Part shown: positions 48,701 through 54,700 of the stretch, piece by piece
How the letters are laid out: each line of letters opens with the position of its first letter
Numbering within the stretch: position 1 is the stretch's first letter
From: Candidatus Ryanbacteria bacterium CG10_big_fil_rev_8_21_14_0_10_43_42
Lineage (GTDB): Bacteria > Patescibacteriota > Minisyncoccia > Ryanbacterales > 2-02-FULL-48-12
Direction of reading: 5' to 3'
Length of the DNA stretch: 64,000 nt
Assembly (NCBI GenBank): GCA_002793915.1
Contig: PFEF01000005.1
Span: 83,108 to 147,107 of the forward strand
Made by a program: the position numbers

Positions 48701-51700
48701 ATCATTTTGCATATCTTTTACGCCACTCATTTGTTCGGAACCAAGGCGTTGACTGCGAAATTTAAGAAAATCAAATTCTTTTCCATTTTTTCCCACGCGT
48801 CGTTGGCGAAAGAAAATACGCCCGTCTCCTTTTCGTGCCCGTCGTTTTTTGTGATGCCATATATCTTTAGGTGTTGAGAGAAGAATACCAAGTATTATAA
48901 CGGGAAGCAGGGCAAGAAATACAACTCCAAGCATAATACCCAGAATGATATCAAAAAATCGCTTTGAAAATTCATATGCTCGCTTACGGATACCTACCAA
49001 GTTTTCTAAAAACCATATTTCCGAAATAAGGGACGTAGGAATTTTCCCGGTAAGCGATTCGTAAAATGTTGGGAAATCAACAACCTGTATACCTAATGGC
49101 AATGCCTCATAAAGCATAATTACAAATTCCCTGTTTGAGCGTATATCACGGGAAGCTACAATAAGAGATATCTGCTTTTCTTTTATGTGTCGCTGAACGG
49201 TTGTGTTGAATTCTATTATGGGCAGAGATGAGTCAAGAGAAGCAGTCTTTTCTCCATCATCTACAAGAAGAGAGACATAATAACCGAAATGAGGATTGTT
49301 CTTCAGAGTATGTGCAAGTCCCAGAACTTCATCGGAAATACCAAAAAAGAGAATATTTGTTTTTGATGAACGGCGAATAATATGATTTGCCCCTATGCGC
49401 CATCCGAGAATGAGGAGTACGGTAAGAATCGCCTGAATAAGAAGATTTGTTTTTGGAGTAATGCCAAATGCTTCTATGAGATAAAAAAGAATTACCGCAA
49501 CGGCGGTTGATGCAATCATGGTGCGTATAAAGCGTTCGCGAAACGAACGGTCTGCCGTCCATGCGGATTGATCATAAAGTCCCGCTATAAAGAAAAATAA
49601 TATCCAGATGATAAAAACAACTGTGAATGGTGTTTTATGGATGAGCCAGGGTTCTCTTAGTGCCGTTTGATAGCGTATAAGGAGAGTAATGCCAAGTGCC
49701 ACATAGAGCGCCATTATATCTCCGAGAAGAAGAAAAAAGGTGATAGGTTGCTTTTGTTTCATACTGTGTATAGTAGCGCAGATATATAAAAAAGGAAGAA
49801 ATAAACTCCGTAAAAACGTAATGGTAGACGGGAACTATTCGTGGTATAAGTAATCTATGCAAAATGGGTATGTGGAGCGAATATTATTATGGGGAACCAG
49901 AATAGGCATCTGGCTCCTTTTGTTTGTAACTCCTCTTGTTGTATCGGGGTCACTTTTCTTCCCTTTCATTACCGGAAAAAATTTCTTTTTTCGTATTGTG
50001 GTTGAAATCGTGTTTGGACTATGGGCGGGGCTTGTTGTTGTAAATCCGTCATTTCGTCCACGCAAAGGACCTCTTCTTTGGGCATTTTCCGGATTTGTGA
50101 GTATTCTCTTTATTGCAGGAATGCTTGGTGCCGATGCGGCACATAGTTTTTGGTCTAATTTTGAGCGCATGGAGGGTATTGTGACACACCTTCATTTACT
50201 AGCTCTTTTTATCATGACGGCGTCGGTTTTTCGGACAAAGAAAGACTGGATACTTACGTTTCATGTTTCTCTTGCCGCAAGTTTCATCGTGGCATGCATA
50301 GGATTATTGGAAAAGACGGGGTCTATAGCCATTCCGGGATCAAGTCCGGGGCGCGTATTTGCGACACTGGGAAATCCTATTTATTTGGCTCTCTATCTTC
50401 TTATCCATATGTTTTTGTTGGGCATAGTAATTCGATGGATAACGCAGTATTGGGCGCGTGTCGCATATGGTTTACTTTTCCTTTTTGAGCTCTATATCTT
50501 TTTTGCAAGCGGCACGCGGGGCGCCGTAGTGGGTCTTTTTGCGGGATTTATTGTGGGTCTTGTGGTATTCATGTTCACAACGCCGGACGCACGCATGAAA
50601 CGGATATCGCTGGTTCTTCTCATAATCGGGTTCATGAGCGTAGGTGGCTTATTTATGTCCCGGGAATCCGTATTTGTGCAGTCACGTCCGCTTCTTACGC
50701 GGTTTGCCAATATTAGTTTATCATCGGCAACTGCCGAGTCACGTTTTACCATTTGGCGTATGGCATGGGAGGGGTTTAAGGAACGCCCTATTCTTGGATG
50801 GGGCCCGGGGAATTTTATTATTCCGTATGCCACATATTATGATCCCAATTTGTTTGGAAATGAGCCGTGGTTCGATAGGGTGCATAATATGCATTTTGAA
50901 TGGTTAGTTACAACGGGAATTATAGGGTTTACGGCGTATGTGGGATTGTGGGGATCCGTTGTTATTCTCTTATGGCGATTATGGCGCCGGAACGTGTTTG
51001 ATTCCATAACAGTCTCTCTTCTCGCGGCTCTTTTTACGGCATATCTCGTACAAAATTCATTTGTGTTTGATACGGTTATTTCATATATGCTTATTACCGT
51101 TTTGTTTGCGTTTTTACACAGCTTGTCTGTTCCTTACGGTGAAGAAAAATCGAGTATTTTATCCGCAGGTATGCGGAATAATCGCATACTTGTAGCGGGA
51201 TGTTGCGTAGCGGCTGGTATTATACTTGCATCAACATTGCATACGAAGCAAATACAAGTGGCGCGTGGCATTATCACGACATTACAATCGGCATCACAAG
51301 GTACGGCACTTATATTAAATGAGCAATTTGATGCCACTATTGCAAAAGGGACATTTGGTGTTACGGAAGCACGCGAACGGTTTATGGATCTTGTACTGCA
51401 GGCATCACGCGAACCAAATGTATCGGGGCAAGACTTACTTCTTCTTGTTACCAAAAATATTGATGAAATGGAAAAACAAGTGGCAAAAAAGCCTCAATTA
51501 TTACGTCATCATATTTCTCTGGGTAAGTTATACCAGTTACGCTTTGCTCTAACGGGAAATAAATCTGACAGGGATCATTCTATTGATATATATAATGTTG
51601 GTATTGCCATGGCGCCGAATTATCCGCCTACCTATATTGGTATCGCCGAGACATATCTTACGGATAATAATTTTGAGGAAGCCACTAATGCGGTCGACAC

Positions 51701-54700
51701 TATTTATCAGAAAATGACACGGCCAAATTCGATTATCTACAGCGTTCTTTTGGTGAGCGTTTTGGCGGGGGATTTTGATCGGGCGGCAGAGCAGGTTGAA
51801 CGATATGTAAGTTTAGGTAATACACCCGAATATCCGGCACCGGCATGGTTTGAGCCGCCAAAGTTAGAAGATGTTATTAGAAGATCATTTGTGCGAGGGG
51901 GAGTAGCTGAAAGAGAAGTATTTCTTCGCACTGTTTTAGCGGCTCAAGAAAATTCTATAGTATTAATGGCACTTGCGGAAACACTCGTAGAGCAGGGAAA
52001 AAACGAAGAAGCGCGTTCTTTCGCATTGCGTGCACGGGAAATTGCACCGCCGGAGGGCGTTATAGAAATCGATAAATTTATTCGCGGACTTGACGATTTT
52101 TAAGTATGGTAAAGGTATTCTCACGTACTATTCAATACATTCTCATCGCTATTCCTGTTCTTATACCTCTTGTATTTTGGCAGGAGGTATTTTTTCCTTA
52201 TACATTTCCTAAAACGATACTCTTTCGGACGCTGATAGAAATTGCATTTGTGCTATGGCTACCACTTGTAATATTTATTTCGCGATACCGTCGTTTATAT
52301 TCTTTTCCCGCTATATCGGTAAGCGTATTTTTCGGTGTCCTCGTTATTACGTCTCTGACCGGTGTAGATGTTTTTAAAAGTATATGGTCGGATTTTGAAC
52401 GCATGCTTGGTTTATGGACATATGTACATCTTTTTGTATTTTTCCTAATGTTGGTAACTATGATGCGAAGTATAAGGGATTGGAATCGACTACTGGTAAC
52501 TTCAATAACGGCGGCAAGTCTCATTAGTATTATAGGTATCGGAGAAGCGGTAATATCCGAAGGGCGTATTATTGCAACAATAGGCAATGCGGCATTTCTA
52601 TCCTCTTATTTGCTCTTGCATGTTTTTTTATCCCTTATGCTTCTTCTTAACGAGGAAAGATTTAATTATAAGGCCGGATTTTTTGCCTTGAGTACCGGTA
52701 TGATAGGAGTCGCTCTTTTTCTTACCGAAGCACGTGCCGGACTGATAGGATTATTTGGCGGCCTTGTGGTTCTTAGTGTATTATTTCTGATTTTTAGCGA
52801 GACTGACGGACAGACACTTTCTATTCCTCATAAAGTTGGAAAACGAATTGGTGGTATTTTGTTGGGATTGTTTACGGTTATGAGCGTATTTTTTATATTA
52901 TTTCCTAAATCGATAAGTCCTTACGTTCCGAATCAATTACGACGGTTTACGGATGTAAGTTTAGCGGAGCGTACGGCAGAGGGGCGTTTTCTTACATGGC
53001 GCGTAGCATGGGAGGGCTGGCAGGAGCGTGGTATTACCGGATGGGGGATCGAAAATTTTAATATCCTTTTTAATGCGCATTATGATGAACGGTTATTCAG
53101 GCAGGAGCCATGGTTTGATCGGGCACATAACATTATTTTTGATATAGGAAGCAGTACCGGCATTCTTGGTATATTTTCATATATGATTCTTTTAGGAAGT
53201 ATGTTTTTTACATTGTACCGAAAATGGCGGAATAATATGTATACGTTTTGGACATCCGCGGTTCTTGCGGCTTTGTTGGGAGGGTATGTTCTTCAAAACA
53301 TGTTTACATTTGATACTATAACAACACTCATACCGCTATGGATGATATTTGCCTTTGTTGCCGTTTCTTTGCACGATGAAAAGTACGTCATAGAAGATAA
53401 ACAAAAAAACAAACTAATACTGGGTGGTGTTGTATTACTGTCAGTAGTTCTTATTCCCGGTTGGTATTATGTAAACGCAGCACCAATGCATGCAAATAGG
53501 GCGGCACATATCGGTTGGGAAACCCTTCGTCTTGGAGGTGGGGATGAAGAAGCCATTCAGTTATTTAACAAAGGTCTTTCATATAAGACGCATGGAGATG
53601 TCGATATACGGCGTTTCTTTGCTGAATACGTGTTTGAGTTTTTGAAGCAGGGCGGTGTGCGTCCGGACGAATCATTATTTCGGCTTATGACGCAGGCGAA
53701 TGAGTATATGGACGAAAATATTCGGGCAGATCCGCAAAATGTAAAGTGGTATATATATCAGGGGGAGTTATATAATTTGATGGCGGTGCGATTTGATAGT
53801 TCTTATGCGTTATTGGCGGAAGAGTTTTATTTAAAAGCCCGCGCATTATCTTCGGCGCGCCCGCAAATTTATCTGGGTCTTGCGGAGGCGTATAAGCGGC
53901 AGGGAAGGATAGAAGAAACATGGCAGGAACTCGATACTGTGTTAGAAAAAGTACCTGCATTTCTTGCCGCACACGAAGCGGCAGGGATTACTGCGATAGA
54001 AACGGAAAATAGAGAACGGGAAGAACAGGAAGTAGAATGGATTATCACAAACGGACATGAGGCAGGTTCTTTGCGGGACGCCTATTTTCTTGCCGAGCGT
54101 TACGGAGATGCCGCACGCATACAAGAGTATATTATTCACGATGATGACTTGCTTCGGAAAGATCGTGCAACCCTCTATGCCCAACTTGCCGCTCTCTACA
54201 ATCTTGCGGGAGAGAAGGATAAGGCAAGGCAGGCAGCTTATGCTGTACTGGAGTTTGATCCAATGCGCAAAGATGAAGTGGAAGCATTTTTGAATACCCT
54301 TTAAGTTGTCCTGACTCAAAAAATCTTTATGTATTTTAGTTTTGAATTGTTACATATGACACCGGAAGATGATTCTAAAAAATGTTCTTAAAAGAGTAAT
54401 GCAATAAAGCTCTTTTGGTTTATCAAAGACTTATGGTTGAGTAGATGCTAGTATAATAGGGTTATATACACAGGAATAGTTGACTTTTTTGTATAAATCT
54501 GTTACTATGGGGTTGTGGGTTATTGATAACAATAATTTCTACTACATCGCACATAATTCCGCTTCGGCGGAATTTTGTGCGTTTGGGAGAGAATGCTATT
54601 ATAGACGTGGGATCATGTGGTCGAACTCACATCTGATGTATGTAGGAGGTTATTACGCCCATGATCCCACGAAAGAATCCTGTTTTTCTAGCGGGATTTT

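Follow-up and report, generated by a model that had tools for sequence, protein, structure and literature searches.

Tandem paralogs of the WaaL/PglL class with predicted extracytoplasmic repeat arrays between a glycan island and murB in a Candidatus Ryanbacteria genome

What is the function of two large membrane proteins encoded back to back at the edge of a glycan island in a bacterium of the Candidate Phyla Radiation (CPR)? The question is raised by a 64,000-nucleotide stretch of Candidatus Ryanbacteria bacterium CG10_big_fil_rev_8_21_14_0_10_43_42 (contig PFEF01000005.1; the window), for which an original prediction from the DNA alone had proposed, at 49857-54304, two tandem paralogs that each join a Wzy_C domain to a C-terminal tetratricopeptide repeat (TPR) array and lie between an initiating polyprenyl glycosylphosphotransferase (PGT) and murB. 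Open reading frame (ORF) calling, BLASTP, Pfam and profile searches bore out this architecture, and the two genes, here called P1 and P2, do sit between the PGT gene and murB (Table 1). It is very probable that both encode transferases of the ligase/oligosaccharyltransferase (OTase) class with an outward-facing TPR array. The fuller statement, that they form a WaaL/PglL-class pair that transfers glycan en bloc, carries its TPR arrays outside and most likely uses a protein acceptor, is an even call.

P1 and P2 are separated by 2 nt (TAA-GT-ATG), and a search of this junction found no terminator-like site. The proteins align end to end in BLASTP at 29% identity over ~740 columns (E 4e-86), and on this alignment they are judged to be true paralogs, well beyond chance. 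The Pfam Wzy_C domain (PF04932; cutoff 31.7) was detected in P1 at 72 bits (6e-20) and in P2 at 56.8 bits (3e-15). P1 is 100% identical to a 'hypothetical protein' from a Candidatus Ryanbacteria metagenome-assembled genome (Parcubacteria, CPR). For P2, the one database record with 100% identity is a JGI gene call of 614 aa, which covers 84% of the ORF (P0121); the search returned none of 732 aa. The longer ORF is favored because its homology to P1 and to P2-type orthologs takes in the first transmembrane (TM) helix, and the public call appears to be truncated at its N-terminus. That the pair is a chance arrangement or an assembly artefact was ruled out, since the order PGT, P1-type, P2-type, further genes and murB is repeated in independent assemblies (L001, L003, L004, L010, L081 and L082).

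In WaaL-type ligases two arginines bind undecaprenyl diphosphate (Und-PP) and a histidine activates the acceptor, whereas inverting Wzy polymerases and SEDS proteins have Asp or Glu where the ligases have His (PMC10920833). A family profile was built from 42 members, and its membrane part was also searched alone against solved structures. This membrane-domain profile matched WaaL of Cupriavidus metallidurans (7TPG, E 1e-11) and 9RMK, a 610-aa 'Oligosaccharyltransferase' (E 1.7e-8); a single-sequence phmmer search with P1 against the PDB returned no WaaL, which is matched by the family profile only. R221, R296 and H343 of P1 and R210, R294 and H341 of P2 align on R191, R265 and H313 of the Cupriavidus enzyme, and the codons of the catalytic residues in both proteins were verified in the DNA. 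H343 also aligns on His349 of 9RMK, within the motif THSHN, a residue that we take to be the essential histidine of Neisseria PglL. The arginine pair and the histidine are invariant across the 42-sequence alignment, P2 included, and the histidine lies within the motif WFDRxHN in both proteins. Because an invariant His stands where polymerases have Asp or Glu, the alignments support placing P1 and P2 in the ligase/OTase class (CAZy GT121) and not among the polymerases, and both proteins show all testable features of the Wzy_C/GT121 ligase class. The alignment that the original prediction had called for accordingly located the WaaL/PglL arginines and histidine in each copy, and its view that these are not plain polymerases is supported by the His at the ligase/OTase position. 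The score against the IctB family (TIGR00947) was 41 bits, far below the curated cutoff of 366.

Beyond the catalytic residues, the invariant motifs of the family include FFPFITGKNFFFR. Three others go unmentioned in the WaaL literature consulted: an intramembrane R46/E50 pair in TM2 (window 49992-50006), SFWSNFERMEG in outer loop 2 (P1 residues 97-107, window 50145-50177) and FVFD in the short outer loop that links TM11 to TM12 (P1 residues 402-405, window 51060-51071). D405, the last residue of FVFD, lies 62 residues past the catalytic His, and the functionally important E404 of PglL and E379 of PglS lie 55 residues past theirs; judged by this spacing alone, D405 may correspond to these glutamates. 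A search with the segment from the His to TM12 gave a weak WaaL match (E 0.06) that ends before the residue and no match to a protein O-oligosaccharyltransferase (O-OTase).

The membrane topology was derived from AlphaFold2 (AF2) models and from the distribution of charged residues. The models are confident (P1, pLDDT 92.3 and pTM 0.89; P2, pLDDT 89.1 and pTM 0.87), and each consists of 13 membrane-length helices, a long helix extending out of TM13, and 14 further helices. The best Foldseek match among membrane proteins is WaaL (7TPG_B; TMt 0.58, E 3e-5 for P1 and TMt 0.60 for P2), and both models follow the helix order of the GT-C(B) fold, in which the core has 12 TM helices and TM9 is joined to TM10 by a large outer loop. 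WaaL itself has 12 TM helices and its Arg/His loop outside (PMC10920833). In the P1 model four helices (345-377, 383-399, 407-424 and 437-478) follow the outer Arg/His loop, so that the chain should end outside. When loops were assigned as inside or outside from a WaaL-like placement of the catalytic loop, Lys and Arg made up 26% of the inside loops and 9% of the outside loops, with the excess on the inside in 42/42 homologs, P2 included. TM13 is hydrophobic in every homolog (minimum 19-residue hydropathy 1.83). Taken together, the models and the charge bias strongly predict an extracytoplasmic TPR array in P1 and P2, reached through a TM13 that follows the 12-TM core; its position above the active site is an assumption. 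A cytoplasmic TPR region and missing catalytic residues were the two outcomes that the original prediction had named as counting against it, and neither was found.

The identity of the C-terminal arrays as TPRs is weak in single sequences (P1, TPR_19 at 30.4 against a cutoff of 25; P2, TPR_14 at 23.8 against 23.5). It is made decisive by the sequence profile of the 42-member family, which over positions ~533-740 matches consensus-TPR (CTPR) proteins at E 6e-60 and the TPR domain of OGT at about E 4e-22. Foldseek likewise gave the CTPR and OGT TPR superhelices as top hits for both AF2 models, with E 1e-5 for P2 against CTPR, and the predicted repeats are thereby confirmed. Pfam gave no hit at E up to 1 for the Wzy_C_2 (PF11846-type) domain of PglL/PilO, and the C-terminal part matches TPR families only. 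TPR arrays, superhelices of tandem 34-residue helix-turn-helix repeats, are classically protein-binding modules.

Table 1. Positions of P1, P2, their domains and key residues, and of flanking genes in the window
Feature	Coordinates	Strand	Extent	Remarks
P1	49857..52103	+	748 aa	Wzy_C/GT121-type ligase-OTase, 13 predicted TM helices and C-terminal TPR; canonical family copy
P1 membrane domain	49857..51239	+	residues 1-461	12-TM WaaL-like core and extra TM13 (residues 444-461, nt 51186-51239); from AF2 DSSP helices and K/R bias
P1 R221	50517-50519	+		outer end of TM8
P1 large catalytic loop, predicted extracytoplasmic	50658..50888	+	residues 268-344	holds R296 (50742-50744) and H343 (50883-50885)
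P1 D405	51069-51071	+		invariant
P1 TPR-like array, predicted extracytoplasmic	51306..52100	+	residues 484-748	14 helices, ~7 hairpins; from TPR_19, profile, AF2 and Foldseek
P2	52106..54304	+	732 aa	divergent tandem paralog, P1-like architecture; separate P2-type subfamily
P2 R210	52733-52735	+		invariant column with P2 as reference
P2 catalytic loop	52901..53131	+	residues 266-342	holds R294 (52985-52987) and H341 (53126-53128)
P2 D403	53312-53314	+		invariant column with P2 as reference
P2 C-terminal TPR-like array	53543..54301	+	residues 480-732	sequence-degenerate; TPR_14 borderline, Foldseek
PGT (initiating polyprenyl glycosylphosphotransferase)	48353..49762	-		divergent; Bac_transf 1e-57; TIGR03025 324.8 (cutoff 295.55); presumed maker of the Und-PP donor
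Wzx-type flippase (Polysacc_synt)	17713..18981	-		Pfam 2e-17; 10 hydrophobic segments; presumed exporter of lipid-linked glycan
murB	54727..55704	+		conserved downstream anchor; NF010480 272 (cutoff 259)
hpf	56093-56524			downstream of murB
secA	56932-59640			downstream of hpf

The distribution of the family provides further evidence. A full-length query returned more than 2,100 matches, nearly all of them Patescibacteria proteins of 700-800 aa, and the named members are labelled 'O-antigen ligase family protein' or 'O-antigen ligase/TPR repeat protein'. The membrane domain alone retrieved 2,488 cluster representatives (50% identity) at E <= 1e-30, of which the top 150 are again nearly all 700-800 aa. 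Among species-representative genomes at least 578 loci carry a relative; the best 80, to which the locus counts below refer unless another denominator is given, are all from Patescibacteria. The gene is single in 76/80 loci and a tandem pair in 4/80. Identity across Parcubacteria is 30-50%, with 29 invariant columns.

The genomic position is conserved as well. In 33 of the 44 loci with enough sequence, murB and/or secA lie downstream on the same strand within 5 kb. A divergent PGT gene is directly adjacent in 14/68 related loci, and also in L081 and L082; Wzx genes adjoin the family gene in 14 related loci. The upstream neighbors in related loci comprise Wzx flippases, GT2/GT4 glycosyltransferases, epimerases, UDP-glucose dehydrogenase, and NeuB with a CMP-transferase. 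The Wzy_C-TPR gene thus usually marks the border of a variable glycan island, with murB/secA downstream of it. A conserved enzyme beside variable donor-synthesis genes fits a ligase/OTase with a constant acceptor, which is the opposite of what is seen for Wzy polymerases (an argument made in PMC10920833).

These observations suggest the following scheme. P1 and P2 would be co-transcribed GT-C(B)/GT121-type enzymes acting on the outer face of the cytoplasmic membrane. The ~50 kb island upstream would assemble a glycan on undecaprenyl phosphate, with the adjacent PGT carrying out the first step, and the Wzx flippase would bring it to the outer leaflet. There, R221 and R296 (P1 numbering) would hold the diphosphate of Und-PP, and H343 would activate an acceptor hydroxyl, to which the glycan would be passed en bloc. 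TM13 would return the chain to the outside, where the seven-hairpin TPR array over the active site would most probably bind the acceptor or a partner protein. The likeliest acceptors would be Ser, Thr or Tyr residues of surface proteins, making the pair protein O-OTases in the manner of WsfB, PglL and PglS.

A protein acceptor is favored by analogy, because WsfB, PglL and PglS share this architecture; it is the leading candidate, held with slightly less than even confidence. WsfB, the experimentally studied S-layer tyrosine O-OTase of Paenibacillus alvei, is a close parallel in organization, combining Wzy_C with a C-terminal TPR in a monoderm whose glycan cluster starts with a WbaP-type PGT (PMC2943079). 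Both WsfB and PglL are reported to carry a C-terminal TPR motif; WsaB of Geobacillus stearothermophilus, also a monoderm, is without one and has a separate TPR protein, WsaA, encoded next door (PMC2943079). The likeness to WsfB is one of shared Pfam architecture. The CPR family has its own invariant motifs, and no S-layer gene is seen near P1 and P2. In its AlphaFold model, PglS comprises 13 TM helices followed by a periplasmic C-terminal domain that shapes a cleft over the active site (PMC12800693). P1 and P2 resemble PglL (Neisseria), PglS (Acinetobacter) and 9RMK in the Wzy_C domain, the aligned catalytic His and a TM13 followed by a C-terminal domain predicted to lie outside; they differ in that this domain is a ~265-residue TPR superhelix instead of a ~110-residue domain of the Wzy_C_2 type, and identity is very low. 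A similar design logic is found in the eukaryotic TMTC1-4 and in bacterial PMT_2-TPR proteins, where a GT-C domain that uses lipid-linked sugars is joined to a TPR on the luminal or periplasmic side, which presumably contacts protein substrates. These are of the GT-C(A) subclass, use monosaccharide donors on a monophosphate lipid and have no sequence relationship to P1 or P2.

Candidate acceptors can be named in related loci. In 14/80 of them, and also in L081 and L082, a secreted PG_binding_1 protein is encoded within 1-2 kb of the Wzy_C-TPR gene (e.g., L081:1033-2274 and L034:2201-3217). It has a signal peptide, an N-terminal domain, a low-complexity linker rich in Ser, Thr, Pro, Gly and Ala (e.g. 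TSPSTSTDTTTTTTTDSTATTEDTTATDTTTATE) and two PG_binding_1 domains. General O-OTases are active on low-complexity, S/T/P-rich stretches such as this linker, and the S/T-rich PG_binding_1 proteins are circumstantial candidates for O-glycosylation.

Several points weigh against protein O-glycosylation by an outward-facing pair. WaaL-like enzymes also ligate glycans to lipids, as TacL does (PMC5727136). The C-terminal domain of Wzy_C_2 type found in PglL/PilO is missing from the family, whose score is slightly higher for WaaL than for the O-OTase. A search of the window found no S/T-rich PG_binding_1 homolog, and only the 14/80 loci mentioned have one. No separate Wzy polymerase was recognized in the 64-kb window, so the context leaves room for a polymerase role of one copy. 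The topology is a prediction, and when hydrophobic segments from the His to the TPR were counted by crude hydropathy, the expected four appeared in only 20/42 sequences, with 3-6 in the rest; this count is noisy and was set aside in favor of the AF2 helices and the K/R bias. The original prediction of 'substrate-recognising O-OTases or ligases' is upheld by the catalytic residues as regards the enzyme class.

The main alternative is a ligase with a non-protein acceptor, of lipoteichoic acid type for instance, which would attach the polymer carried on Und-PP to a glycolipid of the membrane or to a different anchor in the envelope. The TPR array would then dock partner proteins from the envelope machinery instead of acceptor proteins. 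By profile and by fold the best solved relative is indeed WaaL (Cupriavidus metallidurans, 7TPG/7TPJ; GT121), whose R191/R265/H313 are kept in P1 and P2. The high conservation and single-copy housekeeping position of the family would also fit a constant lipid acceptor, and a sulfatase/LtaS-like protein and several PMT_2-like GT-C enzymes in the island hint at lipid-linked surface polymers. TPR arrays, as noted, classically bind proteins. The pneumococcal lipoteichoic acid ligase TacL is a Wzy_C enzyme of a monoderm that transfers an Und-PP-linked polymer to a glycolipid membrane anchor, but it has 397 aa and no TPR (PMC5727136). WaaL, which uses lipid A-core as acceptor, is likewise a 12-TM protein of ~400 aa, and neither enzyme has an outward C-terminal domain (PMC10920833, PMC5727136). 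A TM13 followed by an external C-terminal domain is the pattern of O-OTases (PMC12800693, PMC2943079). This alternative is considered rather unlikely. WaaL in the strict sense was rejected as an identification on architecture and host: the C-terminus of WaaL is cytoplasmic, P1 and P2 have the extra TM13 and a predicted external TPR of ~265 aa, and CPR bacteria are not known to make lipopolysaccharide or its lipid A-core.

Less probable still, and on balance improbable, is that one or both proteins polymerize Und-PP-linked repeat units, with the TPR as a scaffold or chain-length module. The Wzy_C domain is common to some polymerases, JGI names one homolog 'oligosaccharide repeat unit polymerase', and the window has a Wzx gene, with no other Wzy candidate recognized in it. 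BcsC is among the family-profile matches, and TPR scaffolds are known from polysaccharide export systems such as that of BcsC. The invariant His speaks against this role, because the related inverting polymerases (BP-Pol families, clan GT-C1), like SEDS proteins, have Asp or Glu there (PMC10920833). So does the degree of conservation: Wzy proteins are extremely variable, in step with the structure of the repeat unit, and this family retains 30-50% identity and its 29 invariant columns beside variable glycan genes.

P2 raises the question of what the duplication means. In 4/4 tandem loci the second gene resembles P2 (33-44% identity) more than it does P1, and a search with P2 recovered ~24 orthologs at >=34% identity before a sharp drop. 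P2-type orthologs appear to lie on the same contigs as the closest P1 orthologs. In L081 and L082 the order is PGT (minus strand), P1-type (747 aa), P2-type (769 aa), UDP-glucose dehydrogenase, epimerases, murB and hpf. The tandem state is a lineage-specific variant of a normally single-copy gene, and the sequence relationships indicate a single origin of the pair, followed by its retention, within a Ryanbacteria-like subclade to which the duplication is confined.

Divergence between the copies is uneven: identity of P1 to P2 falls from 49% for the catalytic loop to 33% for the TM core and 19.5% for the TPR. When 54 P1-type and 27 P2-type sequences were compared, 45 positions were conserved in both, R221, R296, H343 and D405 among them, and 12 were fixed differently. 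Four of these 12 are polarity or charge changes in the TPR (E507->R, E541->N, Y589->R and A643->E in P1 numbering), with R503, R585 and E639 as the P2 equivalents of E507, Y589 and A643. By these patterns P2 represents a constrained and seemingly catalytically intact subfamily with a re-modelled TPR, whose surface suggests a second acceptor or partner. P1 represents the housekeeping copy of most Parcubacteria, and P2 would be an older duplicate serving this second acceptor or partner. The 'distinct acceptor specificities' of the original prediction are suggested by the TPR divergence and the subfamily-fixed charge changes, which stop short of establishing them.

P2 could instead be a decaying or regulatory duplicate without catalysis, leaving P1 as the sole enzyme. 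Its TM core has 25-35% identity to the family against 38-80% for P1, the near-invariant residues T39, G40 and N42 of the first outer loop are lost, its TPR is barely detectable by sequence, and JGI calls the shorter 614-aa product. Decay is very unlikely given an intact 732-aa ORF with 29/29 family-invariant residues, R210/R294/H341/D403 included, a confident AF2 model, and 27 P2-type sequences that have conserved positions of their own and always lie beside a P1-type gene.

A peptidoglycan-related role, as a SEDS-like polymerase or a ligase of wall polymers to peptidoglycan, is the least credible reading: the downstream murB and/or secA of 33/44 loci, the membership of O-Lig and SEDS in one GT-C(B) clan (PMC10920833) and the absence of a recognizable LCP-type ligase in the window speak for it, and are outweighed by the 10 TM helices and essential Asp of SEDS where this family has His (PMC10920833), by neighbors on the other side that are variable glycan-island genes and a PGT and not mur/fts genes, and by the P2-murB gap. 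This gap measures 422 bp and has its own promoter-like site and terminator-like hairpin, and for this reason P2 and murB probably do not form one operon.

A broader proposal is more doubtful than the protein acceptor itself: the Wzy_C-TPR gene beside murB-hpf-secA might encode the central enzyme of general O-glycosylation of proteins throughout the phylum in Parcubacteria. It would place the product of the neighboring hypervariable island, whichever glycan that is, on S/T/P-rich linkers of secreted PG-binding wall proteins and perhaps on pilins or S-layer proteins, and in the Ryanbacteria-like subclade P2, with its recharged TPR surface, would serve a second acceptor class. If this were true, it would be the first defined surface-glycosylation machinery of the CPR and would provide a natural OTase pair with TPR-encoded acceptor choice. 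CPR/Patescibacteria are mostly uncultured episymbionts, whose cell surface presumably mediates host attachment. A protein acceptor would make the family the basis of a general O-glycosylation pathway for the CPR radiation and a source of compact OTases with modular acceptor-binding domains for glyco-engineering. The label 'O-antigen ligase' on thousands of Patescibacteria proteins appears in any case to be a misnomer for a conserved, TPR-bearing WaaL/PglL-class transferase with 13 predicted TM helices, encoded where a variable glycan island meets core genes.

A full-text search of the literature on CPR/Patescibacteria found no paper treating this enzyme family, apart from one incidental and unrelated co-mention in the Lipocone paper. 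A cyanobacterial exopolysaccharide paper treats no Wzy_C-TPR fusion, and nothing relevant was found on O-glycosylation or pilins in Patescibacteria. No published treatment was found of the near-housekeeping status of the gene, its fixed position in Parcubacteria or the conserved two-enzyme variant. WsfB, PglL and PglS already exemplify the design, and domain databases detect the family and give it generic names; for these reasons the advance is incremental and not conceptual.

The remainder of the window gives some indication of the glycan. The ~50 kb before the PGT gene hold sugar-nucleotide, glycosyltransferase, methyl-, sulfo- and carbamoyltransferase genes together with the Wzx gene, and are followed by P1-P2, murB, hpf and secA. 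Four PMT_2/ArnT-like GT-C membrane glycosyltransferases with 8-11 hydrophobic segments each are encoded on the plus strand (1274-2752; 2752-4140, a weak match of 19 bits; 23135-24484; and 29710-31083), which implies several further transfers from polyprenyl-phosphate sugars at the periplasmic face. That the surface glycan is sulfated and/or carbamoylated is suggested by genes for a sulfatase/LtaS-like protein with a membrane anchor (15215-16744), for a sulfotransferase (16790-17710, minus strand) and for a carbamoyltransferase (25257-27068); several SAM methyltransferases are also present.

Within the glycan island, an unusual plus-strand run of genes at 41066-48344 encodes an acetaldehyde dehydrogenase (AcetDehyd-dimer), an HMGL/DmpG-type aldolase, a TPP-dependent acetolactate-synthase-like enzyme and an NAD epimerase, along with three subunits resembling ATP-citrate lyase or citryl-CoA synthetase (ATP-grasp_2 with Citrate_bind, CoA_binding with Ligase_CoA, and a C-terminal Citrate_synt). 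This run may serve the synthesis of branched-chain or acyl-modified sugars, or may be a small carbon-metabolism module rare in CPR.

The P2-murB spacer has features of its own. A promoter-like site, TTGACT-17-TACTAT with an upstream TG, lies at 54480-54508 (plus strand) and is followed at 54510-54712 by a 203-nt, very stable predicted RNA structure (-80.2 kcal/mol, z = -8.35 against shuffles) that ends in a 16-bp hairpin and a T-run, ~15 nt before the murB ATG. An Rfam scan of the spacer gave nothing above the gathering score. The hairpin, CACAnAATyCC..GGrATTTTGTG, and other blocks recur 5' of murB in L001 and L081, and the element at 54480-54726 may act as a so far undescribed murB leader/attenuator or as a small RNA in Ryanbacteria-like CPR.

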